Below are positions 20,985-36,655 of a stretch of 64,000 bases of DNA, in pieces. Below the pieces are notes generated by a model. It ran no database searches and had not been told where the DNA came from. It saw only the letters and a list, made by a program, of their open reading frames with translations. The position numbers were made by a program, and so were the translations under genes. Within the stretch, counting starts at the first letter, position 1; each line of letters begins with the position of its first letter. Source of the DNA: Bacteroidales bacterium (GTDB lineage: Bacteria; Bacteroidota; Bacteroidia; Bacteroidales; UBA4181); the NCBI GenBank assembly GCA_031551645.1, contig JAVBNI010000001.1, forward strand, positions 10,902 to 74,901. Reading direction: 5' to 3'.

Positions 20985-21064
20985 ATGGTATACGATTAAA
21001 ATGAAATGATTATAAAACGAATCAAGTGCAAAAAGTTGGTGGTGTAAAATTCTTGCATTCGTTT

Positions 21065-21214
21065 ATGCCCTGACGGGCAATTTAATTCTTCTTCATGTCC
21101 GGTTCTATTGACATTTTTCCCCTAACGGGGAATTGTCATTACCGAAATTGTCCGTAGGACAACAACATCAATAGAAAAAAAATATCCTCAACTAATAATT
21201 GCCCGTCAGGGCAT
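21065..21214. repeat. 150-bp element bounded by an 18-bp perfect inverted repeat, with internal tetraloop hairpins
   Basis: atgccctgacgggcaatt (21065-21082) is the exact reverse complement of aattgcccgtcagggcat (21197-21214). Internal hairpins are cccc-taac-gggg (21119-21130) and ttgtcc-gtag-gacaa (about 21147-21162). Confidence 0.6.
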
Positions 21215-21365
21215 CAACCTTGAGAGCTATTAAATACATTTTACCAACATGTTTTTATCTTGATCCTATAAAACTACTCCGCCTTCCTGCATATAACACA
21301 ATATTATAATACAGTCCTGTATTTATCAAGAATACAAAGTTACAAAATTGTATGAAACGTGAAAT

Positions 21366-21532: not shown

Positions 21533-22558
21533 CTAACGCCTTCCCGGATTTCCACTGCTTTGGAATTCATATCTCCGTTTGTAGCGGAAGAAACGTTCGC
21601 TTTGTCCAAAGGTGACACTGACCATCAATTCGTGCGAACCATATGAATATTTGCGGATACTGCTTAAGCTGTAGTCAAAAGCATAGCCAAAATGGTATTG
21701 TTTGTAACGAGCGCCAAACATGATACTGGTTGCTCCGTCCGATCCGCCAGCACCGGAACGGTATGACAATCCGCCCCAAAACTGGTCGTAATAATATGCC
21801 ATGGCGTTAAGGTCAATCTGCCCAACACCGTGTTCATTTAATTTGATTTGTGCACCGGGAACCACACTCCACTCTTTATTAATTTCGAAAATATAGCCGC
21901 CCAGAAGGAGATACTGGCGTTCAATCCTATAATCGGAACTATTACGCCCGCCAAACATCAGGTATGACTGGAACAGATTGGATGCCGAAAAACCGGCATA
22001 ATAATCTTTGGTAGTATAATGTAAGCCGAAAGAAGCATCCGGAACGATACTGTTAAGATCCGAAGCATTGATGAAACGGTCTTCATCCTCGGTTGTAATC
22101 TTTGAACGATCGATGCGTAACTGGAACAAACTGGCCGACAAACCGAAAGAAAGTTGTCCGAAGCGATCTTCAATATGGTAGGCATAGGTAAACTGCAAAC
22201 CGGTGGTACGTATCGGTCCCCTCATATCGTTGAAGAGGGCTGCACCCAAGCCTACATTTTCGGGACTGAATCCTCCTGAACTGCGACGTACCCTGTTGCC
22301 AAAAAGTCCTTCGCGCGGTACCCGTGTTTGTGCGGTTAATGTCTGATTAGACGGAGCGGCTGAGAATCCAGACCACTGGTCTTTCACGATGAGGCCAACC
22401 GACGAATAGCCATCGCTACCGCAAGCCGCCGGATTCAACAGGAACCGGTTGAAAAGATACTGGGTGAACGGTTGCGACTGCTGACCGGTCACCGTCATAC
22501 ATGACAGTAACAGGAGCGTTACACCGGCACATAAAATATGTATCTTTTTAAATATCAT
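21533..22558 (-). CDS. PorP/SprF-family type IX secretion system membrane protein
   Basis: 341 aa. The typical N-terminus is present (signal, then QQSQPFTQYLFNRFLLNPAACGSDGY...VKDQWSGF) and the rest is a beta-barrel-like Gly/aromatic-rich protein. It starts 8 bp after the type-B CTD gene. Confidence 0.85.
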   Translation of the reverse strand: MIFKKIHILCAGVTLLLLSCMTVTGQQSQPFTQYLFNRFLLNPAACGSDGYSSVGLIVKDQWSGFSAAPSNQTLTAQTRVPREGLFGNRVRRSSGGFSPENVGLGAALFNDMRGPIRTTGLQFTYAYHIEDRFGQLSFGLSASLFQLRIDRSKITTEDEDRFINASDLNSIVPDASFGLHYTTKDYYAGFSASNLFQSYLMFGGRNSSDYRIERQYLLLGGYIFEINKEWSVVPGAQIKLNEHGVGQIDLNAMAYYYDQFWGGLSYRSGAGGSDGATSIMFGARYKQYHFGYAFDYSLSSIRKYSYGSHELMVSVTFGQSERFFRYKRRYEFQSSGNPGRR

Positions 22559-22566
22559 GTGTGTAT

Positions 22567-23643
22567 TTATCGAATAATGGTGATTGTTCCAAGAATAGGT
22601 TTATTGCTCCTACCATCGTTCAAATGGATGATATAATAATAGGTTTCCATCGGCAGGACATGTCCACGGGCATCACGACCATTCCATGGATTCGACACAT
22701 ATCCTTTGGTTGAAGTAAATACCTTGCGTCCCCAGCGGTCGTACACCTCAACGATAGAGTTCTGATAATCCCGGAGAACTTTGATTTCCCAGACATCATT
22801 GTCGCCGTCTCCATTAGGCGTAAACGTATTCGGTATATCCAAATTTACAGGAAGCTCCTTGCATGCCATGATAACAATAGTATCGCTTGCTGAGCAACCT
22901 TCATGGTCGGCGCGTACCCAATACAACATGTCGCTTTGAGTATCGTGTTCGTTAACCTGGATAAATGGTGATGTGCCGCTTTCGCCGGTCGACCATGTAA
23001 AAGTTGTTCCCTGCGGATTAGTATTCGGGTAAAGTGCGTCCAACCTGAAGCCCGGCGTACAAATCATGGTATCGGGACCCAAATTAACCGCTACCGGTGA
23101 ACCCGGCAATATTTTGACATAACTGCTCAACCGGCAGTTGTTCATATCAATAGTTCTCAATTCATACGTTCCTGGCTTGGTAATAACATTGTCCTGAATG
23201 GATTTGTCCACCCATTCATAAGCTTTAAAGGCAGATGCATTGAAATCTACTGTTACCCCATCACCTTTGCATATCGTATAGCTATTTTGTCCGAATGTGG
23301 CATATTCGCCTACCACTTCAACGTTCAGGTAAGCCCAGTTACCCTCGCATCCATGTGTAGACGTCTCGCGCAAACCTAATGCATATATACCTTTGGTATT
23401 TCCCCATTTTACAATAATGGAATCGGCATATTTCTGAGCCAGTTCCCCTCCTCTAAGCGGCACCTCGTATTCGTACGTCGAACCGTCTTCACCAACAGCC
23501 TTGTACATTACCTTCGTGCCGATACAGACTTTCTCGTCCTGCGAAAATGCCGGGTGAGCGAAGATCAGCAAAGCTACCAACAGGGATAATATATGTTTCT
23601 TTTTGGACAAAGTTCGGATTCTATTTTTATTTGTTCGACACAA
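22567..23643 (-). CDS. Secreted protein with a T9SS type-B sorting domain (gliding-motility-associated C-terminal domain)
   Basis: 358 aa. The C-terminus reads IPNTFTPNGDGDNDVWEI...VEVYDRWGRKVF...WNGRDARGHVLPMETYYYIIHL...GTITIIR, the hallmark of type-B CTDs. The N-terminal module IIVKWGNTKGIYALGLRETSTHGCEGNWAYLNVEVV resembles the three upstream paralogues. Confidence 0.85.
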   Translation of the reverse strand: MCRTNKNRIRTLSKKKHILSLLVALLIFAHPAFSQDEKVCIGTKVMYKAVGEDGSTYEYEVPLRGGELAQKYADSIIVKWGNTKGIYALGLRETSTHGCEGNWAYLNVEVVGEYATFGQNSYTICKGDGVTVDFNASAFKAYEWVDKSIQDNVITKPGTYELRTIDMNNCRLSSYVKILPGSPVAVNLGPDTMICTPGFRLDALYPNTNPQGTTFTWSTGESGTSPFIQVNEHDTQSDMLYWVRADHEGCSASDTIVIMACKELPVNLDIPNTFTPNGDGDNDVWEIKVLRDYQNSIVEVYDRWGRKVFTSTKGYVSNPWNGRDARGHVLPMETYYYIIHLNDGRSNKPILGTITIIR

Positions 23644-23695
23644 ATTTTATGACACAGTGCCGAATGATTTTTTTTATTTTGTTACATCCGCCATC

Positions 23696-23722
23696 CCTGT
23701 ACAGGCAAATTACCTGTACAGG
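23696..23722. promoter_or_regulatory. Two copies of the 10-bp perfect palindrome CCTGTACAGG, 7 bp apart
   Basis: Copies lie at 23696-23705 and 23713-23722, 53-79 bp upstream of the type-B cargo start codon and inside the operon. The pair can also fold as a 10-bp stem with a 7-nt loop. Confidence 0.45.
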
Positions 23723-23783
23723 ATTGCGAACTGTAACATGATGAAACAAATAACTATTTTATATATTTTAACTTATGATCTGA

Positions 23784-24707
23784 TTAAGGCATGTTTTTAA
23801 CATGTTCCAATTTCTTGGTCTTCGGAGCAGGATATACATTAACGGTATATACATCCGCAGCTGCCGGAATATGAGTGCCGACTACAGCAGCAACACTCGT
23901 TTGATCAAGCGATTTGCGAGAAATCCGGTCAGTCAGGGTATTGATGGTTATCGTATAAATACCACTCTTATCCGTCTGTAGATTATCCAGATTAGCTGCA
24001 GGAATAACTATATCATACTGTCCGCTTTTTCGTCCGTCAGTACCAACCTCTACGGCAGTATAAGTACCAAGAGTTGTAGCCCCGGTTCCATCAAGCTTTG
24101 TATATTTAACAGTATAGCTTACTATCCATTTTCCATATCCGGTCATAGTGAGGGGAATGGTAACTGCAGTAGCGGCACAACCTGCTGTTTCTTTTACGGT
24201 AGGCCATTGCAAGGTAGGCTTAGCCACAACCTGGATACGGGCAATGGAATCTGTCCCGGTACAACCTGCAACATTGGACGGAAGGATAATGCTCCGCTCA
24301 TTGACCACAAGCGAATATTGACCAGGAGACCCAGGCATAACAACGTTGATTTCCTTATCCGTATAATAATTGGGATAAGCAGCATCGGTACTAGCTGTTG
24401 CAGATGTTAAGGTTGTCCCCTTGTTAATAGCCCAAGCTAAAGGAGTTCCTGTAACCGTGGATAAATAACCAGTATAAAACGCCCACTTGAATTCCGATTT
24501 CATTTTATTTTGAGCAGCCAGACCCACAATGACAGGGTCTCCTGCCATTTTATACGGCATACGGCTACCGACGGTCACCGTATCGATACTCTCTGTACCG
24601 GTAGTTGTGAATTCGGTATAATTCGGCGTTTGTGCAGAAACAGTCATCGACAACAACGCAAATGCTGCTGCGAAAAATCCTACTTTAAACATGTTATTTG
24701 TTTTCAT
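23784..24707 (-). CDS. Secreted protein, uncharacterised paralogue family (P1)
   Basis: 307 aa with an SPI-type signal (ALLSMTVSAQ). It shares with P2 and P3 the motifs DTVTVGSRMPYK, a GC-x-G beta-module and the C-terminal YTITINTLTDRISRKS. It has no lipobox and no T9SS CTD. Confidence 0.75.
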   Translation of the reverse strand: MKTNNMFKVGFFAAAFALLSMTVSAQTPNYTEFTTTGTESIDTVTVGSRMPYKMAGDPVIVGLAAQNKMKSEFKWAFYTGYLSTVTGTPLAWAINKGTTLTSATASTDAAYPNYYTDKEINVVMPGSPGQYSLVVNERSIILPSNVAGCTGTDSIARIQVVAKPTLQWPTVKETAGCAATAVTIPLTMTGYGKWIVSYTVKYTKLDGTGATTLGTYTAVEVGTDGRKSGQYDIVIPAANLDNLQTDKSGIYTITINTLTDRISRKSLDQTSVAAVVGTHIPAAADVYTVNVYPAPKTKKLEHVKNMP

Positions 24708-24748
24708 CTTATTTGATTTTTTAAATTTTCTTGTTTTTTATTTTAAGC

Positions 24749-24780
24749 CGCTGTCAGGGTCATCCGACCACTGACAGGGC
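24749..24780 (-). repeat. Conserved bulged hairpin (REP-like), copy B, between P2 and P1
   Basis: The plus strand reads cgCTGTCAGGGTC-atcc-GACCaCTGACAGggc. On the transcript (minus) strand it has the same sense as copy A. The stems are identical and only the loop differs. Confidence 0.6.
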
Positions 24781-24793
24781 AGGTTTATCTTTA

Positions 24794-25711
24794 TTAATAA
24801 TTACCATTATTGGGCAAACGATAGATCGGACCGGTTTCAACAGGCTTCAATACACTATAAGTGAAAGTGGCAGAACCTCCTACTGTAAGTAAACCGGCTC
24901 CGGTACTGGGAGCGTTTGATTTACGTGATATACGGTCGGTCACCTGAGTGATGGTTACTTCATACTTGCCATGCAACTTAGCGTCATTTTTAAGCATGAT
25001 GGTTAATATCCCCTTCCCGCTTACGATGGGAACAGAAACATTTGTTCCATAGGTAGTTTCGGGAGTTCCTGAAACAGGTGTGAAAACCATTGTGTAATTT
25101 ACCTTTATTTGTGACGATGCGGTCGTAGGCGTTAATTCGAAAGGATGATTAATACCGGCATTAACCTGAGTTTGCGTATAACATGCACCGTCCTTATAAT
25201 CAGCCGGACTTCCCGCTTTATCAAAAGTAATGGTCGGTTTCGGGATAACAGCCACAGGTATTTTTGTTTCAGTTCCCGGACATCCGTTAGTCGGGTTTTC
25301 CGTTACCCTGATGGTATCCACACCTGCCGTATTCCCCCACAAAATCGAAATAATATGCTTGTTGGTCGGGGTACCGGTTGTGGCTCCCAATTCTAATGGA
25401 CTTCCACCGTTACGTCTGAATCCCCAGCTGAAAGTTGATAATACTTTTGTAAAATCAGCCGCATTTTCGGGCGTATCGTATTTGAAATCGGGATTGGCTG
25501 TTGCGTCGGGCAATACAAAGTACTTCATGGTTGAGGTAACGGTTACCGAGTCGCGAACTTCCTGCGAAAGAGCCGGTCCACCGGTACTGTTGTATCCATT
25601 CTGGTAATAATCTTTTTCAAGCGTTACCTTGTTAGGAGCCGTTTGCCCGTAAACATTAGCTATTAAGAAAAACAGCAGGGCTACAATACTATATTTAACT
25701 AAATTTTTCAT
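24794..25711 (-). CDS. Secreted protein, uncharacterised paralogue family (P2)
   Basis: 305 aa with a signal (FFLIANVYGQ). Shared motifs are RDSVTVTSTMKYFVLPD, ISILWGNTAGVDTIRVTENPTNGCPGTETKIPVAVIPKP and YEVTITQVTDRISRKS. Confidence 0.75.
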   Translation of the reverse strand: MKNLVKYSIVALLFFLIANVYGQTAPNKVTLEKDYYQNGYNSTGGPALSQEVRDSVTVTSTMKYFVLPDATANPDFKYDTPENAADFTKVLSTFSWGFRRNGGSPLELGATTGTPTNKHIISILWGNTAGVDTIRVTENPTNGCPGTETKIPVAVIPKPTITFDKAGSPADYKDGACYTQTQVNAGINHPFELTPTTASSQIKVNYTMVFTPVSGTPETTYGTNVSVPIVSGKGILTIMLKNDAKLHGKYEVTITQVTDRISRKSNAPSTGAGLLTVGGSATFTYSVLKPVETGPIYRLPNNGNY

Positions 25712-25731
25712 TATCCTGATGTATTAATGGA

Positions 25732-26697
25732 TTAGAAATTATTCGGAACATGATAAGTCTTACCGGCTTTCGGTTGCGGCAATACATAATATGTAAACTG
25801 GTTATCTGTTGTTGTGGTCGAAACATTGGCGGTTGTTATGCCGCATTTTGTAGCAATACGGTCGGTGATCGATTTGATGGTAACCACGTATTTTCCAAAA
25901 TCGTTAAATTTAAGGGATAACTGACCGGTAGCGGCATTGGCGCTGGCAAGTGTCACCGTTTGGTCGCCACCTTCAGTACCATCATCTTTTGTAATGGAGT
26001 ATGTTATGACAACTTTATTAGCTTTACTGATAACAGCGCCGGTTGCTGTCGAAGCCGGGATCAACGGAAAGTCGAAAATCGGATATTCATTACCACTACC
26101 ATCAGCCTCATTGGGATCAAAAGTAGCACATTCGGCAGCCGTACGCGTACCGTCTTTCAGGCCAAACATAACATTCGGTTTAGGAATAACTGTCACGGGT
26201 ATCGTGTTTGGTTCCCCATCACATGTTACAGACAACCCTGTTATTACGGGTTTTTCCACAATGGTAATATCACCTTGGCCTTCGGCTGTCCATTCAATAG
26301 TCACATAAGGCGAAGTATTGGTGGTATTTTTATTTTCATAAGCATTCAAAGTACCGATTGCTGATGGAATTGTCCATACAAAATTCGATGTGGTAATGGA
26401 CGTATTGGTATAGACATTTTGATCGTAATAAGTCTTGTTGTAAAACTTGTCGGGAGCAACAAAGTATTTCATCTTGGAACTGACCATTACGGAGTCTCTG
26501 GTTTCACGACCTGATGGATCAGGGGTTCCAATGGTCGTATTATTTTTATTATTACCATGCTGGTAATATCCTGCCTTATCCAGAACGATGGTAACGGGAA
26601 TCGGATCAGGCATAGCCTGACCTGAGACATGAATAACTCCAAACATCAATAACCCGAAAGCTATGATACCCCATTTTTTTGTATACTTGTTGTTCAT
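25732..26697 (-). CDS. Secreted protein, uncharacterised paralogue family (P3)
   Basis: 321 aa with a signal (FGVIHVSGQ). Shared motifs are RDSVMVSSKMKYFVAPD, VTIEWTAEGQGDITIVEKP...CDGEPNTIPVTVIPKP and YVVTIKSITDRIATKC. Confidence 0.75.
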   Translation of the reverse strand: MNNKYTKKWGIIAFGLLMFGVIHVSGQAMPDPIPVTIVLDKAGYYQHGNNKNNTTIGTPDPSGRETRDSVMVSSKMKYFVAPDKFYNKTYYDQNVYTNTSITTSNFVWTIPSAIGTLNAYENKNTTNTSPYVTIEWTAEGQGDITIVEKPVITGLSVTCDGEPNTIPVTVIPKPNVMFGLKDGTRTAAECATFDPNEADGSGNEYPIFDFPLIPASTATGAVISKANKVVITYSITKDDGTEGGDQTVTLASANAATGQLSLKFNDFGKYVVTIKSITDRIATKCGITTANVSTTTTDNQFTYYVLPQPKAGKTYHVPNNF

Positions 26698-27150
26698 TTT
26701 ATTTTCTTATTCGATTATAACAATAAATTCAAATTACCACATTATACGTTAAACTTTGTTTGAGGTTGCATTCTTCGAAAAATTTTCTTACTCTAAATGC
26801 TTTATTCAAATAACCATTATTTATTTTAGCCTGAAAACAAACAATTTACCAAACATCATATATAAAGGAAAAATCGACATTAATGTTCGAAACAAAGGCA
26901 TTCATACATCATTTTTGTTTATTCGTCATAATTTTCCGGACGTTGGTAAATTAATGTAAGGGAAACTCTTCTCCAACACAGGGTATGACAAGATGCTTGG
27001 AAGAAACCAATGATGGTTTAAACCTCCGGAATGAGTTGCAAAAATTTTATATCAGAAAGAAACAGTTCGTGCGCTTACACAAAATATATGCGTCCATTCA
27101 ATCGTAAGAATTTGTAAAATATATTGAAAGACAAACAGTAGTTTCAAATT

Positions 27151-27200
27151 ATCAATCCGTGTACGCACACAAAAAAATCTATTAATCCGTGTGTGCGCAC
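27151..27200. promoter_or_regulatory. Direct repeat of a 20-mer (ATYAATCCGTGTnnGCnCAC) with 30-bp spacing; the second copy holds the palindrome TGTGCGCACA
   Basis: atcaatccgtgtacgcacac (27151-27170) and attaatccgtgtgtgcgcac (27181-27200) match at 16 of 20 positions. They lie just 3' of the sensor-phosphatase stop codon and about 450-500 bp upstream of the P3 start codon. Confidence 0.35.
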
Positions 27201-27232
27201 AGCTTATAAAATGAAAGTATATCTAATCACAT

Positions 27233-30200
27233 TTAAACCCGGATGCCGATTAGCAGAACATCATCGACTTGATCAATATCCCCCTTCCAAAGGTCAAAGT
27301 TTTCTTTAATCACCCGATGTTGCTCGTCCATATTCCGGTTATGAATATCATTAAAAACATTTTGCAGCCGGTTCATTTTAAATTTCTTCCCTCCCGGGCC
27401 ACCAAATTGGTCGGCATATCCATCGGTAAACAAATAAATCACATCTCCTGGAGACAGTTGCATTTCCACCATTTCAAAGGATTTATTTTCCAGCACCTGC
27501 CCACCGATCGACGAACGGCTACCCTTATATGAAGTCGCAGCTCCATCGTGATAGACGACGAACGGACGCATGGCTGAGGCAATCTTTACCTGATGTGTTT
27601 CGGTATTGATTTCGCACACGGAAAGATCCATCCCATCATTCGCCTGTTCCGATTCCCGGTTTTGATTCAGCGTCGATTGAATATTTTCATCCAAACGATA
27701 GAGTATATCCAAAGGTGATCGAACGTCAGGACGTATGGCAATATCTTTAATAAGCGTAGTCCCGATAAGTGACATAAACGCTCCGGGAACACCGTGTCCG
27801 GTTGAATCGGCACAAACGATCAACAAGTTCTTGGTCTGTGGAAAATACTCAAACCAATAAAAATCACCGCTAACAATATCCCGGGGCCGGTAAAAAACGA
27901 ACGCTTCGGTACAATGCTCGAGTAACGTGCTGGTCGATGGCAACACACTGAATTGGATACGTTGGGCATAGTTGATACTATCGGTAATATCCCTGTTTTT
28001 GTTCTCGATCTCTTCTTTTTGTTCACGGACTTCTTTGGTTCGCGCAGCCAATTCCCGCTCCAGGTATTCCTGTTGTATCCGGTGGTTACGTTCCCTGACC
28101 ATGATAATCACGTACACAACACCCACCACAGCGCCTATTACCAGAATAGTAAACCACCATGATTTCCAGAAAGGCTTACGCACTTTCAATGAAAACAAAA
28201 GTGTTTTTTCGGTACAGTTATCACTATTGCAAGCTTTCACCCACAGCTTATAGTCTCCGTCTTCCAAACGGGGATAAGTCACAAAACCAGCATTTGACGG
28301 CGCCGACCATTCACTGTCATATCCTTCCAATATATATTGATAAGTCACTGATCCGGGGTTACGAAACTGTAATCCGATGAAATCGAACTGTACCTTATAA
28401 CGTCCATATGATAAAGTTACCGGTTGATATGGATTATAATTTTTTTCGCCAATCATCACATCGGTTAGATTCAACATCGGCGCCTGATTCTGGTTTTTAT
28501 CTGCAACCAGGTTATACACAAGTACCCCGTCGGTAAGCCCCACCAGCATTTCACCGCTATTGTTCACCAGCATTGCATTGGGGTTTACGTCACCGGTGAT
28601 ACCGACCTCGTGTCCGAACTGCATAATGGTATGCCGTTGAGTATTGATACGACTCATTCCCAAGCGATGTCCCGCCCATAGATGATCGTTGTCGTCAACA
28701 ACCATCGCATAGCAAAAATCGGATTTCAAACCATCAAGCGTCGTGAAGTGGTAAACCGTATCATGCGCTATGTCGAACATATAAATACCACGCCCAAGCG
28801 TCCCTGCCCAAAAATTTCCGTTGTTATCACTGGTAACAGTTGAAAATTCGATTTCACTTTCACCTTCAAGGGTGTATTTTTTGTCTTCATTAACTGCAAC
28901 AATTGAGTTGCTATTAGTTGCTATCCAAATAATATTTTCCCGGTCTTTATATATATCGCGGATATTGTTATGCGGCAATCCTTCGGAAGTGTTTTTTGCC
29001 TCAACCGCCCCGGTTTGCGTATTTACAATAATCACCCCATTACGCGATGCATACCATATCTTGCCGTCCAACGAAGTGATAGCCTGTATGGCATTGGACA
29101 AGGAATTCTCCGAACGATAAACTAAAAATACCTGATGGGTATCTTTAACCATTTTATAAAGGCCGCTTTTTTCGGTACCAATCCATAAATCACCTTTCGC
29201 ATCCGTGTGTAAAGCCGTAATCCTATCATTAGGCACCCCATTGGCACGTCCTAAAACAACCGTTTTTTGCTCGGATTTTGATGTTATCTTCATCATAACA
29301 CCTATACCTGCAACCCAATATTCGGAGTCGTCAACCGATAAAAGAGCTGTTGCATTATTACCGATCGACTCTGTATTTTCGAAAAACGAGATTGCCAGGT
29401 TGGTCAAACACGCCAAGCCTTGTCCGTAGGTACCTACCCAAAGGTTTTGTTGGTTATCAAAAAACACTTGCTTGACAAAATCAGTACCCAAGCCGTTCGT
29501 GCTGTTGTAATTGAATATTTTTCCAATAGTCAGATCCGGTGCATACCGTACCCTGAAAAGTCCTTCACCAAGAGTCGATATCCAAAGGCTGTTTTGTTCA
29601 TCCTCATAGATCGATTGTACCCGCGCATCTTCAAGGCTGGGAATATCCATTTTATGTACCATGTATTCGCTCCCTGTAAAACTGATATTAAATATGCCAT
29701 CATCCTCAGTAGCTACCCAGAAATTATGGGATTTCTTTTGCGGAATGATCGCCTGAACTGTCATTCCTGACAACTGATCCACAGCTGCGTTGAAATCTAG
29801 GTTTGAACGGTTTTTCTGATAATCGTAAATATACAATCCATCCTGGCAACCGATAAACATCCTGTTTTCATCAATAAAGCAAGCAGAATGAATCAACTTG
29901 TCTTCAAAACCTTGTGAAAGATATTCTACTTTCTGCCCGGTAATGCGTGTTATTCCTTCTGTCTGGGTCACAACCAAGATTTCACCCTTAGGCGCTTGTA
30001 TGATCTGGTTGACGGATGTATTGCTTTGCGAAGTATCAGCAGGGAAAAAGTTGTAACCATCATATTTCACAACAAGCCCATCATTATACCCGAACCACAC
30101 GTTACCGGTAGTATCTCTGAAAGCGGTTGTAACATTGGCTAACGGCAAATCGTTCTCTGGCGTTTCGAAGTTGAATCCATCGTAACGGCAAAGGCCCATC

Positions 30201-30376
30201 CCGGTGGCAAACCAGATAAAACCATGTTTATCCTGCGTAATGGAATAAATGGTATGGTGACAAATACCCTTATCGATACCATACTGTTGGAACTTATAAA
30301 TCTGGGCATAGTTGGTGTGGCATGGTAAAATAAGGATTCCCAGCAAGGCCACAAACAAAGCAACCGTGTTTCTCAT
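27233..30376 (-). CDS. Periplasmic beta-propeller/Y_Y_Y sensor fused to a cytoplasmic PP2C-type (SpoIIE) Ser/Thr phosphatase
   Basis: 1047 aa. After the signal come repeated two-component-regulator-propeller units (GFIWFATGMGLCRYDG, NLWVGTYGQGL, DLWIGTEKSGLY, NFWAGTLGRGIY). A Y_Y_Y domain follows (YQYILEGYDSEWS...YPRLEDGDYKLWVKA), then a TM helix (WWFTILVIGAVVGVVYVIIMV), a coiled coil, and a PP2C/SpoIIE domain (SGDFYWF...CADSTGHGVPGAFMS...NDGMDLSV...LFTDGYADQFGG). Confidence 0.85.
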   Translation of the reverse strand: MRNTVALFVALLGILILPCHTNYAQIYKFQQYGIDKGICHHTIYSITQDKHGFIWFATGMGLCRYDGFNFETPENDLPLANVTTAFRDTTGNVWFGYNDGLVVKYDGYNFFPADTSQSNTSVNQIIQAPKGEILVVTQTEGITRITGQKVEYLSQGFEDKLIHSACFIDENRMFIGCQDGLYIYDYQKNRSNLDFNAAVDQLSGMTVQAIIPQKKSHNFWVATEDDGIFNISFTGSEYMVHKMDIPSLEDARVQSIYEDEQNSLWISTLGEGLFRVRYAPDLTIGKIFNYNSTNGLGTDFVKQVFFDNQQNLWVGTYGQGLACLTNLAISFFENTESIGNNATALLSVDDSEYWVAGIGVMMKITSKSEQKTVVLGRANGVPNDRITALHTDAKGDLWIGTEKSGLYKMVKDTHQVFLVYRSENSLSNAIQAITSLDGKIWYASRNGVIIVNTQTGAVEAKNTSEGLPHNNIRDIYKDRENIIWIATNSNSIVAVNEDKKYTLEGESEIEFSTVTSDNNGNFWAGTLGRGIYMFDIAHDTVYHFTTLDGLKSDFCYAMVVDDNDHLWAGHRLGMSRINTQRHTIMQFGHEVGITGDVNPNAMLVNNSGEMLVGLTDGVLVYNLVADKNQNQAPMLNLTDVMIGEKNYNPYQPVTLSYGRYKVQFDFIGLQFRNPGSVTYQYILEGYDSEWSAPSNAGFVTYPRLEDGDYKLWVKACNSDNCTEKTLLFSLKVRKPFWKSWWFTILVIGAVVGVVYVIIMVRERNHRIQQEYLERELAARTKEVREQKEEIENKNRDITDSINYAQRIQFSVLPSTSTLLEHCTEAFVFYRPRDIVSGDFYWFEYFPQTKNLLIVCADSTGHGVPGAFMSLIGTTLIKDIAIRPDVRSPLDILYRLDENIQSTLNQNRESEQANDGMDLSVCEINTETHQVKIASAMRPFVVYHDGAATSYKGSRSSIGGQVLENKSFEMVEMQLSPGDVIYLFTDGYADQFGGPGGKKFKMNRLQNVFNDIHNRNMDEQHRVIKENFDLWKGDIDQVDDVLLIGIRV

Positions 30377-30510: not shown

Positions 30511-31509
30511 TTATTTGGCAGGACTTCCTTTCTTGCGCGCATTGATCGCGGGTTTATATTTTGGCACCCCACCAATAGGGCTGGCAAAGAATGGAAGTAA
30601 CTCATTACGTTGGTTACGCACATTGATTACCACGTTGTTGTTTTTAACCGGGGAATTTTTCCTTTTGATAAATTGGAAATCGAGCGATTTTCCTTTTTCT
30701 CCGTCCATAACAGCAAATTCACTTTCAGCCCATACGGCATCTTTCGATACGGTACAAAACTGTTCACGCCGGACTTCAGACGAAACACGAATTACCCCGT
30801 CGTCGTCCCAATCGAAATTTCCCTGCCTTACTTTGAGACATTCCTGGTCTATATAAGGATATATGTGTGACACTTGTTGGGGGTTATCATGCATACGAAA
30901 TGAATATTCGTATGCAAAAGCATTACCGCCCTCAATCGGGATATTTTCATTGGCCGATGTACTTAAAAAATAGCGGTACATGTTTCCGTCATCACCAGCG
31001 ATTCCATCGCAAATCACTTTGAAAACATAACAGCCGAACTTGGAATCGAATTCACCTTCGGTAGGGTTGAACGGCCCAAAAGTATACCATTTATTGTCGT
31101 ATTTCGGATCGACGCCAAATGTTTTAGTTGCCAGCAGGTTTCCACTTTTATAATTTCCTACGGGATCGACCCCCTTTGCGTCAGGATGTGACCACGCTTC
31201 CTTACCACCATATACGGAATACTGCATTTTGGTATCGAACACACCATTCAACTCATCATACATTCCACCGATATCGGGATCAAACACACGAATGAAAACC
31301 ATACCTTTATAAGTCTCGGGTACCTGGAAGAAAAATGTCTGTGAAAAATCATCATCACCCCACAAAATATCCGCTTTATTCCCAAAAGTCATCAAAAAAG
31401 GGATATTTTCTTCTTCCGAAGGAACGGCTTGCGCATGTAAACTAAATCCTATAAAAAGCAGAAAAACAGAAATAAAAAAACCTTTCACTTTCAAATAATT
31501 AAATTTCAA
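30511..31509 (-). CDS. Secreted protein of unknown function
   Basis: 332 aa with a signal peptide (FLLFIGFSLHAQA) and a basic C-terminal tail (KYKPAINARKKGSPAK). I recognise no family motif. It lies immediately upstream of the sensor-phosphatase on the same strand. Confidence 0.6.
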   Translation of the reverse strand: MKFNYLKVKGFFISVFLLFIGFSLHAQAVPSEEENIPFLMTFGNKADILWGDDDFSQTFFFQVPETYKGMVFIRVFDPDIGGMYDELNGVFDTKMQYSVYGGKEAWSHPDAKGVDPVGNYKSGNLLATKTFGVDPKYDNKWYTFGPFNPTEGEFDSKFGCYVFKVICDGIAGDDGNMYRYFLSTSANENIPIEGGNAFAYEYSFRMHDNPQQVSHIYPYIDQECLKVRQGNFDWDDDGVIRVSSEVRREQFCTVSKDAVWAESEFAVMDGEKGKSLDFQFIKRKNSPVKNNNVVINVRNQRNELLPFFASPIGGVPKYKPAINARKKGSPAK

Positions 31510-33986: not shown

Positions 33987-35261
33987 TTATTCGTACTTCT
34001 CTTTAGCAAACCAGAACTCGATCAGTGAAAAATTGACAGAAAGCAACGCATAATTTTCGGTAATGCCGCCTCGTTTGCCTGTGGCGGATTGTCCAAGATT
34101 AAGAGCAACATTCACATACGAACGATTCTTAAATGGCAACCCGAAACCTACCGAAACGGAATAATCTTTCTGTTGATGGCCGTTTACCAGTAAATATGAC
34201 TCGTTGTAAGAAGCGCCTATCTGATAACGGATCAACTGCAGGTAGTTTACAGGCCGTTTAATATTGGGAATGACTTGTAATCCGACACTGTACAGGCGGC
34301 TATCGGTATATCGTATCCCACTTTGCTTCGATGGATCAACCGACCAGTCCTGCTGGTAAAAATCGGCTCCCAGCAACCATTGATGATTTCTCTTATTACG
34401 CAAGATCGAAAAACCCGCCCCGAAAGATTGGGGAACATAGGCCTTCTGATCGGGCATGGCCGCATTCTTTAATGTACTTCCGGTATTTGCCATAATATTA
34501 ATGTGCCGCCCCATATTGATATCGGCCTTATAACCATATACTCCTCCTACAGTAACTCTTGTATGGCCACTAAAGGAACGCGAGTATTGCATACCAAAGT
34601 CGAAATATATCTTGTTGGCCTCATACGTATTTTTGATGGTCATTGCTTTTTCTTCCGAGCTATGCGAAACGGTACCAAATAAATACGAAGCTGTTGCTCC
34701 AATCGATAATCCACGGAATATTTCAAGAGAGTTAGCCCAATAAAATTTATTAATACCGCCATCCCCGGTATATCTCACTGGATAGATTATCTGGTTTCCA
34801 TTTTCATCAAAACCGCCTAAAACCGATTCATATCCCACCATGTGATAGCCCACATTGCTATAAGGAGCCACCCCGACACTGGTCGTCCACATTTTGGACA
34901 CACGGAATCCGACAGCGATATTCTTGAAATTGAAATTGGTCGTCCGTTCTTTTTGGGTTGCGGTACTGAATTCGGAAAGTTTCATCGCCGCCGACAAATC
35001 GAAAATAAAAGTCAATGTATCGATACCGCTCAAACCTGCCGGATTGCGGCGATTTAAATAATCGGTTGACTTAACGCCAATCCCCACATTTCCCATCCCG
35101 GTTGTTCGTCCAAAATCGCGCGTCTCAATTTCACCTATCCCGAGTATGGAAAAAGGCGAACTGGTACTATTCTGCGCCAACCCATCCCCACAGGCCATCA
35201 GAACCGCAACAACACATGCAATAAATACTTGAAATCGAATCGTAAAAATATATTTAGTCAT
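33987..35261 (-). CDS. Outer-membrane beta-barrel protein (FadL/porin-like), function unknown
   Basis: 424 aa with a signal peptide. It has an SPFSILGIGE motif, alternating amphipathic beta-strand patterning, and the C-terminal sequence ...LSVNFSLIEFWF. Confidence 0.5.
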   Translation of the reverse strand: MTKYIFTIRFQVFIACVVAVLMACGDGLAQNSTSSPFSILGIGEIETRDFGRTTGMGNVGIGVKSTDYLNRRNPAGLSGIDTLTFIFDLSAAMKLSEFSTATQKERTTNFNFKNIAVGFRVSKMWTTSVGVAPYSNVGYHMVGYESVLGGFDENGNQIIYPVRYTGDGGINKFYWANSLEIFRGLSIGATASYLFGTVSHSSEEKAMTIKNTYEANKIYFDFGMQYSRSFSGHTRVTVGGVYGYKADINMGRHINIMANTGSTLKNAAMPDQKAYVPQSFGAGFSILRNKRNHQWLLGADFYQQDWSVDPSKQSGIRYTDSRLYSVGLQVIPNIKRPVNYLQLIRYQIGASYNESYLLVNGHQQKDYSVSVGFGLPFKNRSYVNVALNLGQSATGKRGGITENYALLSVNFSLIEFWFAKEKYE

Positions 35262-35290: not shown

Positions 35291-36655
35291 TTAATATTGA
35301 TTATAAATACTGTAGGTCACTCGCAACATCACTTGGTTACCCTTGCTTTCCGGTCCGCTTTTGTAGAAAAAATGTTGGTCGCCGAATACCATCCGTTGAA
35401 ATTCGTTATGTACCGGATATCCATTTTGATCCCTGTCAGGTATGGCAATTCTCAAAGACCACTTGTTGTAACCTTCGGCCCCCAATTGACCTGAAATAAA
35501 GTCGGTGATATTATATGAATAATAATACTTATCGGGCTGATCACGATAATCATTATTTAAATTACCAGTCATTATTGTTTTACCATCTGTGAGAAGCGTC
35601 TCACTTCCAAATCCTTTATCACTCAATGGATTATGTTGATAAAGATTAAGCGCAGGAGGCAACGGTACCGTATCATACGAATGACGAACCGGGCGTATAA
35701 TGAGTTGTGCGCTTTCTATGGTAACAATTTCACCCCAGTTCAGCAACTGGTTCAGTGTTGGAAACTCTATTTGCGTATATAAAACAGGACCACTCTGGAC
35801 AATCCCCATATTACGGGTTAATTCTGTTGGCTTGGGTTGATCCTTCGATGTAATTTGCAGGTAATCCGGGCGTTGTGTAATGTATTGGTTGAACTGTTTC
35901 ATATTATTCACCTTGAATTTCATGGCCGTATCCACCCGGTGTATTACTGTTTTATGATAATATATCTTAATCTGGCACGCCGAATCAGCCACCACAAACC
36001 CATAAATACATGGATTCGGGCTTATATCACTTGGCTCAAGGGCCAGGCCCGGGAATGTTTTCAGGAAGTTATCCGACTTCATGTCATCGTCATCATTGAC
36101 GATTCCCCAAAAAAGTTTCTCCCCGAACTCATCCGGTAACCTGAGTTCTATTTTTCTTTTTTTTGCAGCCCTGACCCTGAAGGTCATATCCTTCACCATA
36201 TCGCCAACCGGAACGGACGAAGTGGAATACATTTCCCCGAAGTCGCTCTGGAACTGCATGGGTTTCACTAACCGGGAAATTTTCATTGCGGCATGTTGCA
36301 CTGTATCACCATAATAAATTCCGAAGGGAAACAATACTAATGTAACGGAATCGAATTTGGCATATTTGTCACGTTCTATGTCATTCGTCCTGTTAAACTC
36401 CATAAAAGTCCTCGCAGTAGACGTTCCCAAATAGGGATCGTGGTAACGGCCTGCATACGCTTTGCCTGTTTGAGCGGTAATCACCGAATCAACAGCTATA
36501 ATAGATAATTTTACAGACAAAGTGTCCACCATAACCGCTTTGGTATAGGGTTCTGACAAATAAGTCCCAATCCTGAAATCGTCATTTTTACATGAAAATA
36601 AAAAAATACTCACCAACAAGCCGATACCGGCAATCTTCAACATATACTTTATCAT
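35291..36655 (-). CDS. DUF4270-like lipoprotein
   Basis: 454 aa with a lipobox (FLFSC). The N-terminal pattern (D...VDTLSVKLSIIAVDSVITAQ...AGRYHDPYLGT) matches my recollection of DUF4270. This is not verified. Confidence 0.45.
   Translation of the reverse strand: MIKYMLKIAGIGLLVSIFLFSCKNDDFRIGTYLSEPYTKAVMVDTLSVKLSIIAVDSVITAQTGKAYAGRYHDPYLGTSTARTFMEFNRTNDIERDKYAKFDSVTLVLFPFGIYYGDTVQHAAMKISRLVKPMQFQSDFGEMYSTSSVPVGDMVKDMTFRVRAAKKRKIELRLPDEFGEKLFWGIVNDDDDMKSDNFLKTFPGLALEPSDISPNPCIYGFVVADSACQIKIYYHKTVIHRVDTAMKFKVNNMKQFNQYITQRPDYLQITSKDQPKPTELTRNMGIVQSGPVLYTQIEFPTLNQLLNWGEIVTIESAQLIIRPVRHSYDTVPLPPALNLYQHNPLSDKGFGSETLLTDGKTIMTGNLNNDYRDQPDKYYYSYNITDFISGQLGAEGYNKWSLRIAIPDRDQNGYPVHNEFQRMVFGDQHFFYKSGPESKGNQVMLRVTYSIYNQY

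Follow-up and report, generated by a model that had tools for sequence, protein, structure and literature searches.

In this study, five minus-strand genes at positions 21533-26697 of a 64,000-nucleotide stretch of Bacteroidales chromosome (contig JAVBNI010000001.1, assembly GCA_031551645.1; hereafter the window) were found to be one copy of a widespread, undescribed accessory cassette of the secretion system known as type IX (T9SS). As confirmed by the open reading frame (ORF) listing, the cassette begins with three paralogous genes, P3 (25732-26697, 321 amino acids (aa); family hidden Markov model E 1e-77), P2 (24794-25711, 305 aa) and P1 (23784-24707, 307 aa), continues with a small protein carrying a type-B T9SS C-terminal domain (CTD), which we call the anchor (22567-23643, 358 aa from its TTG start), and ends with a gene for an outer-membrane beta-barrel of the PorP/SprF family (21533-22558, 341 aa). 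The five genes are separated by gaps of 20, 86, 140 and 8 bp (anchor counted from TTG 23643), as an earlier note on this sequence had described. That note drew attention to a module common to the paralogues and the type-B protein; more telling than this module is the conserved tail at the extreme C-terminus of the upstream proteins, which it missed. Our interpretation, which we hold tentatively and rate at somewhat less than an even chance, is that the tails would dock their bearers (the clients) onto the anchor, and that the anchor alone would engage the T9SS and the PorP barrel. Pfam, NCBIfam and the literature searched contain neither the paralogue family nor its second domain or tail, and they do not mention the rule by which each gene preceding the anchor bears a tail; literature searches for tail motif strings or for combinations of type-B, PorP and PKD operon paralogues returned nothing.

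The cassette is kept in many uncultured Bacteroidia, and 12 non-redundant genomic loci with unrelated flanks were collected. All genome contexts obtained for close relatives (Bacteroidales metagenome-assembled genomes including loci L001, L003, L005, L007, L009, L011, L014 and L015) show two or three paralogues, then a CHU_C protein of about 320-350 aa and then PorP/SprF, with flanking genes that differ at each locus, and the same order is found with members at only 25-30% identity (L016, L017 and L018). A metagenome pattern scan with a narrow family alignment gave 80 further loci, and the counts refer to all non-redundant loci including the earlier ones. Co-occurrence with type-B-CTD and PorP/SprF genes in other genomes, a check set beforehand, was borne out: an anchor-like gene comes next in 51/58 loci with at least 700 bp downstream (50/58 by script, the L014 case being an ORF-overlap artefact), and PorP follows in 30/34 loci with at least 2 kb downstream. 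Cassettes contain one (16), two (11) or three (7) paralogues, and the number of upstream genes ranges from one to three, sometimes four. A reverse search starting from anchor homologues again led to tail-bearing genes upstream (L101 and L102). A more distant 398-aa type-B/PorP pair (L100) has no tail-bearing gene upstream and marks the edge of the system. These data bear on the simplest explanation, co-regulation only, in which an ordinary type-B/SprF-like pair happens to follow fast-evolving secreted immunoglobulin (Ig)-like proteins. The ubiquity of PKD_6 domains, which gives the shared module little weight, and the existence of orphan family genes would suit this explanation. However, synteny spans many habitats down to about 25% identity with conserved gene order, and the C-terminal tail is confined to cassette genes; because of these conservation statistics, we consider co-regulation alone very unlikely.

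The tail itself, V-x-P-x-P-x-T-G-P-I-Y-H-[ILV]-P-N followed by one to four residues and the stop, ends 261 of the 271 non-identical family members. Two types can be distinguished, the A type (P-x-T-G-P-I-Y-H/R-[ILV]-P-N-x(1-4)-COOH) and the B type (..[LI]-[EQ]-H-[VI]-[KR]-N-x). In the window, P3 (tail LPQPKAGKTYHVPNNF, 25735-25782, minus strand) and P2 (tail LKPVETGPIYRLPNNGNY, 24797-24850, minus strand) end in A-type tails that follow the family consensus, and P1 (tail YPAPKTKKLEHVKNMP, 23787-23834, minus strand) ends in the B variant; no family members or tails occur in the window beyond P1-P3. Among 54 cassettes, an A- or B-type tail was present on 91/92 genes upstream of anchors, and the B-tail gene lies immediately upstream of the anchor in every cassette having one (26/26). 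When the six-frame ORFs of all loci (351,129 aa) were scanned, the core Y[HR][LIVTY]PN occurred 113 times, and 108 of these occurrences are no more than 6 aa from a stop.

The tail is also found outside the paralogue family. Thirteen non-family ORFs carry it, all of them directly upstream, inside cassettes, and none of the 13 matched CHU_C or Por_Secre_tail in Pfam. They include PKD_6, PKD_5, Ig_7 or SprB-repeat proteins (L061, L098, L049, L035 and L043), which reach at least 1911 aa, and a purple acid phosphatase (Pur_ac_phosph_N and Metallophos) with an Ig domain in L034 (2-1888). In L085 (353-2713), a complete 787-aa protein joins a purple acid phosphatase to the family C-domain and the tail, behind a signal peptide. 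An apparent M28-type peptidase, recognized by eye in L064 (1-1263), has the same arrangement as the L085 protein, and the enzyme fusions of L085, L034 and L064 have the terminal sequences ..PETGPVYHVPNNF or ..PNTGNIYRVPNL. In the distant cassette L101 (1-6983), a giant of at least 1780 aa, a 260-aa and a 267-aa protein end in ..NSLTER, ..DSLTERP and ..SSLQRRQ instead of ..IYHxPN. Since this cassette has its own tail common to its upstream genes, the tails co-vary within the cassette, as would be expected if a cassette-encoded partner reads them.

Such a tail could also be an autonomous sorting signal read by the PorP-like barrel or the T9SS translocon, with the type-B protein as another client or a cap and without any heteromeric stalk. 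The modular tail does occupy the CTD position on adhesin-like and enzyme proteins, PorP is conserved in the cassette as much as the anchor, and tail covariation fits any cassette-encoded receptor. However, the T9SS signals that are known fold into domains about 70-100 aa long (PMC10202324, PMC12618676) and are not 12-residue peptides, and the constant-size type-B protein with its PKD-like N-domain would be left unexplained, as would the positional orthogroups described next; we regard an autonomous signal as unlikely.

A tree of the paralogues from 12 loci resolved three groups, each of which matches a gene position. The first-gene group, to which P3 belongs, is marked by TDRIA-x-KC and a tail ending ..PQPK-x-GKTYH[VI]PNN; the second-gene group, to which P2 belongs, has the tail ..P-x-x-TGPIYR[LI]PNNY; and the last-gene group of P1, which adjoins the anchor, has the tail ..T[KQ]KL[EQ]H[VI][KR]N[ML]. 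Two-paralogue cassettes combine a P2/P3-like gene with a P1-like gene. The conserved order and the type-specific termini argue for distinct, ordered and non-redundant roles, and the positional orthogroups, the modular tail and its covariation together make it more plausible that a heteromeric structure forms on the cell surface, with only one T9SS-anchored subunit.

The homology of the three upstream genes to each other, proposed from inspection, is well above chance: BLASTP aligned P3 and P2 over their full length (E 7e-23, 32% identity) and P2 with P1 at E 9e-10 (26% identity). The proteins carry Sec/signal peptidase I-type signal peptides ending ..GQ/AQ, and by inspection the signal peptides of P1-P3 contain no cysteine and hence no lipobox. 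The type-B CTD profiles (TIGR04131 and PF13585) gave no match at E<=1 in P1-P3, and Por_Secre_tail (PF18962, type-A CTD) gave none at E<=1 in P1-P3 or in 46 family members. The earlier description of secreted proteins without a lipobox or T9SS CTD is thus in agreement with Pfam, NCBIfam and inspection, and so is the placement of the paralogues outside any named family: P1-P3 had no Pfam or NCBIfam match at E<=1 beyond noise, and when the 46 members were compared with Pfam the paralogues were matched by no family, with one noise-level PapC_C match in 1/46. As a separate candidate, the C-domain was considered as a cryptic type-B CTD, since MAFFT paired its DR..RK with the DRWGRK of the CTD, and this was rejected when hhalign of the C-domain and tail against the CTD gave only 1.5% probability. 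An exhaustive profile search of 1.84 billion representative proteins returned 984 matches at E<=1e-3 and 125 at E<=1e-30; the best 150 of the 984 are mostly full-length (250-345 aa), and some of the 984 are unrelated giant PKD_6-repeat proteins. A word-index protein search under-reported the family, with 32-36 matches. By these profile matches, the family is sizeable, unannotated and missing from Pfam and NCBIfam.

According to structure prediction, each paralogue is composed of two Ig-like domains. The AlphaFold2 (AF2) model of P2 (predicted local distance difference test score (pLDDT) 79.4) shows two beta-sandwiches (residues ~54-156 and ~173-288) and a conserved but disordered N-terminal stretch, and the tail is modelled as coil outside the last strand. 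P3 consists of a signal peptide, a Y-Y-Q-H-G-N-N motif, a PKD_6-like domain, a second, Ig-like domain that includes TDRIATKC, and a tail of the A type (..PQPKAGKTYHVPNNF). P2 has the same architecture with TDRISRKS and the A-type tail ..KPVETGPIYRLPNNGNY, and P1 is without the N-terminal Y-x-H-G-x-N motif and has the B-type tail ..PAPKTKKLEHVKNMP. All three sequence blocks that had been quoted for P1-P3 are present in the alignment, and the signature of the second domain reads G-x-Y-x-[IV]-T-I-x-x-[IV]-T-D-R-I-S-R-K-S. No relative of this second domain was detectable, and the family profile had no match among PDB sequences at E<=10. Foldseek searches of the P2 and anchor models against the PDB gave generic Ig/FN3 tandems only and nothing on function; the best matches were fragments of GhpA, the grappling-hook protein of Aureispira, with template-modelling (TM) scores of 0.2-0.38, and weak matches to CfaB pilin fusions were also obtained. 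The conserved N-terminal motif, Y-[YL]-x-H-G-x-N (P2 residues 36-41), comes right behind the signal peptide in members of the P2 and P3 types, within a low-confidence stretch for which disorder is predicted, and is not present in P1-type members or the anchor; its composition loosely echoes the Y-H-x-P-N of the tail.

The module that the upstream genes have in common with the type-B cargo had been regarded as the unusual feature of this locus. The similarity is real: BLASTP aligned P2 with the anchor over 36 aa (E 3e-5), profile-profile comparison of the family with anchor orthologues gave 97.5% probability (E 4.9e-12) over 119 columns, and hhalign gave 97.9% for the local alignment and 97.4% for the family N-domain against the anchor N-domain alone. 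Because the profile-profile match spans 119 columns, the first and central blocks of the earlier note are parts of one N-terminal domain. The claim that it is unusual did not stand, however. In hhalign, generic PKD_6 repeats matched the family N-domain at 96.7% and the anchor N-domain at 97.8%, and the middle of the family profile matches 12-32 repeats in giant proteins, which in Pfam are PKD_6 arrays with type-A CTDs. Although hmmscan with Pfam PKD_6 (PF19408) gave no match in P1-P3 and matched 2/46 members at E 0.01, profile comparison links them to PKD_6, and on this basis the shared module is a divergent PKD_6-like domain, real but generic. PKD_6 is the commonest repeat in giant T9SS cargo of Bacteroidota, and since the module is an ordinary PKD_6-type domain, sharing it with cargo is not special in itself. 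The N-domains of P1-P3 and the anchor can be placed in the superfamily of the Bacteroidota PKD_6 repeat proteins by profile comparison, whereas the TDRISRKS domain and the tail have no counterpart there.

The type-B protein and its PorP are standard representatives of families already known, and both assignments made from the sequence alone hold above the model cut-offs. The anchor matched TIGR04131 with 65.6 bits (cut-off 35, E 3.3e-18) and CHU_C (PF13585) with 80.1 bits (cut-off 27, E 1.3e-22), which places the type-B CTD at about residues 269-357, and Ig_7 was also matched. It consists of a signal peptide, a PKD_6-like N-domain (36-111), two Ig_7-like domains (121-180 and 199-259) and the CTD, without a tail, and the AF2 model (pLDDT 88.5) likewise shows a PKD-like N-domain followed by an Ig_7-like pair and the CTD. 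Its orthologues, found in every cassette, measure 319-370 aa with constant architecture and form an orthologous family of their own. The start of the anchor is ambiguous, as the ORF lister used TTG 23643 (358 aa) and the NCBI gene call TTG 23610 (347 aa, P0199). The latter yields a normal, cleaner signal peptide (MSKKKHILSLLVALLIFAHPAFSQ) and enlarges the third gap to 173 bp, and the first ATG (23508) would delete the signal peptide; the anchor is therefore probably 347 aa long from TTG 23610. The PorP gene matched TIGR03519 over profile positions 6-292 of 292 (248.2 bits, cut-off 90.55, E 1.1e-73) and PF11751 PorP_SprF at E 6.7e-69, and the C-tail of its product is basic (..FGQSERFFRYKRRYEFQSSGNPGRR; FGQSERFFRYKRRYEFQ..). 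Elsewhere, L102 (1911-3993) has two PorP/SprF genes in tandem after the anchor, and in L005 (1-7574) a 3615-aa PKD/CHU_C giant with its own PorP lies directly 5' of the cassette.

A type-B cargo depends on a cognate PorP/SprF-like carrier, whose gene lies downstream, and remains bound to it (PMC9143113, PMC12618676). In the known pairs (SprB-SprF and Fjoh_3952-Fjoh_3951 of Flavobacterium johnsoniae, PG1035-PorP of Porphyromonas gingivalis), as in the cassette, the type-B CTD gene is directly followed by its own PorP/SprF. By analogy with them, where the carrier makes export possible and also keeps the cargo at the cell surface (PMC9143113, PMC12618676), the PorP barrel is presumed to be the dedicated carrier or anchor of the type-B protein. 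The cassette differs from the known pairs in several respects. First, its type-B protein is small and constant in size, with no obvious effector domain. Second, between one and three upstream genes, or more, that have a C-terminal tail in common are part of the conserved unit. Third, the cassette has no adjacent PorE-like gene and its carrier no SprF C-x-C tail (PMC12635249). The C-x-C motif, which in SprF bonds GldK and couples SprF to the gliding track (PMC12635249), was found in 0/11 cassette PorP orthologues when the last 60 aa were checked, and since the carrier is without this twin-cysteine tail, the complex is probably static rather than track-driven. Static type-B complexes go with PorE-like genes (PMC12618676). 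No such gene was found beside the window cassette, where the neighbours are an NMO-family oxidoreductase (3') and a Reg_prop/SpoIIE sensor (5'), and no OmpA/PorE-like gene was called beside the other cassettes, except for an unrelated PD40/OmpA gene in L005, 2 kb away on the other strand. The sprCDBF gliding operon of F. johnsoniae is similar in that it has several genes, with those for CTD-less accessory proteins placed before those for a type-B adhesin and its carrier, SprF. In the cassette, however, P1-P3 are two-domain Ig-like paralogues of about 300 aa, the type-B protein has 347-358 aa and is not a giant adhesin, and the carrier has no twin-cysteine tail. Pfam and NCBIfam gave nothing that ties P1-P3 to SprC or SprD, with which no direct sequence comparison was made.

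The same findings would suit a periplasmic location, with P1-P3 as the inner-face partner of the PorP barrel, replacing PorE or the SprF-GldK link and tethering or regulating the carrier. The paralogues have Sec signal peptides without a CTD or lipobox, the cassette is without the PorE-like gene and the C-x-C tail that links SprF to GldK (PMC12635249, PMC12618676), the conserved cysteines of the family are compatible with the periplasm, and phosphatases are common periplasmic enzymes. On the other side, the tail also ends two proteins, with minimum lengths of 1273 and 1911 aa, that consist of PKD_6/SprB-type repeats of a kind typical of cell-surface adhesins, and the PKD_6 arrays among the giant-protein profile matches carry T9SS CTDs. 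We consider a periplasmic role improbable on balance.

In the docking interpretation that we favor, the type-B protein would be exported by the T9SS, and its PorP partner would keep it at the cell surface, as in SprB-SprF and PG1035-PorP. The tails would act as docking peptides that bind the Ig/PKD-like domains of the next protein and finally those of the anchor, either directly or in series in the gene order P3 > P2 > P1. The clients may cross the outer membrane bound to the anchor, which would supply the CTD in trans, or may be captured after export. The product would be a short Ig-domain stalk, P3-P2-P1-anchor in the window, with a single T9SS-competent subunit, and in other genomes the distal place would belong to adhesin-like giants with PKD/SprB repeats or to fusions that contain a phosphatase or peptidase, so that the system is proposed to work as a surface-display scaffold. 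Several observations weigh against this interpretation. Seven loci have orphan family genes with no anchor downstream (L025, L026, L041, L043, L047, L072 and L084), single-paralogue cassettes place an A-type tail beside the anchor, so that the A and B types are no simple code, and the P2 tail has a pLDDT of about 84 in the monomer model and may pack in cis. Contig ends truncate the giant clients at the N-terminus, which leaves their signal peptides unseen, and the phosphatase clients could equally be periplasmic. In addition, an anchor tree labelled by cassette class could not part tail-receptor co-evolution from phylogeny, and the literature searched holds no precedent for T9SS export of CTD-less partners by hitch-hiking or co-secretion. 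Many of the orphan genes have MKKSTILK..-type signal peptides, with no anchor or PorP after them; presumably the orphans use an anchor elsewhere in the genome or act independently.

A wider form of the docking proposal, which we offer as doubtful, is a trans-acting branch of the T9SS, in which a C-terminal tag of about 12 residues (P-x-T-G-P-I-Y-H-x-P-N-COOH and cassette-specific variants) would dock CTD-less clients on the type-B adaptor, with which they would be carried through the T9SS and fixed to its PorP. The clients would then comprise Ig-domain stalk subunits, giant PKD/SprB-repeat adhesins, phosphatases and peptidases. If true, these would be the first CTD-less ("hitch-hiking") T9SS cargo, and the arrangement would be a cohesin-dockerin-like display in Bacteroidota.

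The system resembles cohesin-dockerin assemblies or donor-strand pili in logic, and none of their defining features is present. As in cellulosomes, a short C-terminal module is found on enzymes and structural proteins, adaptors combine a receptor domain with a tag, one dedicated surface-fixed protein provides anchoring, and the tags co-vary with the cassette. There is, however, no sequence or fold relation to cohesin or dockerin, the tail is a peptide of about 12-15 residues and not a folded dockerin, binding is putative, and anchoring would run via the T9SS and PorP. With chaperone-usher pili and the type V pili of Bacteroidota, the cassette shares Ig-fold subunits with a conserved terminal extension, an anchor without the donor element and ordered paralogues in one operon, whereas both Ig domains are modelled here as complete sandwiches. 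There is no usher or chaperone gene among the five genes of the cassette, and P1-P3 show no type V pilin (FimA/Mfa) trait, as they have no lipobox cysteine, no arginine-protease processing site and no P_gingi_FimA/Mfa match in Pfam. Lys-Asn isopeptides occur in Ig-like pilin domains, and the tail Asn together with the Asp and Lys of TDRISRK could form an isopeptide-type or transpeptidation link that gives a covalent Ig-domain fibre, a variant of the docking model. The D and K of TDRISRK and the N of the tail are invariant or nearly so across the family. Nevertheless, the giants and the L034-type clients have the tail without the TDRISRK domain, and no transpeptidase gene is present in the cassette; we regard a covalent link as highly improbable.

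The rest of the window is an ordinary Bacteroidales chromosome, which encodes a TonB-dependent receptor, FecR, GH38, Dus, a PAS/GAF histidine kinase, NMO, TilS and DUF4270 proteins and, by eye, an LpxD-like protein and an SDR, and contains no tRNAs. Two further minus-strand ORFs, 30511-31509 (332 aa) and 33987-35261 (424 aa), had no Pfam match at E<=1e-5, and the latter adjoins the DUF4270 protein (35291-36655). Upstream of the cassette, Pfam recognized a 1047-aa sensor (27233-30376, minus strand) with a Reg_prop propeller, Y_Y_Y, a transmembrane segment and a SpoIIE/PP2C phosphatase, which is a possible regulator of the cassette. In L016 (8671-9969) and L018 (8718-9973), Pfam identified a LuxR-type response regulator and a stand-alone receiver directly 5' of the cassette; apparently similar response-regulator ORFs were seen by eye at this place in L021 (4308-5969), and a hybrid histidine kinase lies just downstream of the cassette in L018. 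The signalling genes 5' of the cassette in unrelated genomes hint at signal-dependent expression.

Between the sensor and P3 lies an AT-rich spacer of 535 bp (26698-27232, minus strand) without an ORF of note, which is presumed from its position to be the cassette promoter region. A sigma-70-type promoter scan gave 21 matches against 20.7 in shuffled sequence and hence no excess, and terminator-like matches within genes were disregarded. In the P1-anchor spacer (23696-23722, minus strand), a 10-nt palindrome occurs twice around a central motif, CCTGTACAGG-TAATTTG-CCTGTACAGG, whose TAATTTG centre resembles the Bacteroidetes -7 promoter box TAnnTTTG; this element may be an internal promoter or a processing site before the anchor and PorP genes. 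In the 548-bp spacer 3' of PorP, a 22-nt inverted repeat (21061-21082 and 21197-21218, 95% complementary, arms 114 nt apart) holds a terminator-like GC hairpin in both arms (TGCCCTGACGGGCA); it could either terminate the cassette or represent a small repeat element.

In conclusion, T9SS cargo is now recognized by its folded type-A or type-B CTD, and surveys of genome secretomes rest on that rule. An additional class of proteins, located on the surface or secreted, is suggested by the cassette; these would have a short tail only and depend on a co-encoded type-B adaptor and PorP. If this is true, T9SS secretomes are under-counted, and type-B/PorP pairs would be docking platforms as well and not merely adhesin carriers. 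The family has a clear genomic signature of which annotation pipelines could make use, and the short tag with its adaptor would, if the proposal holds, be a compact surface-display tool for Bacteroidota.

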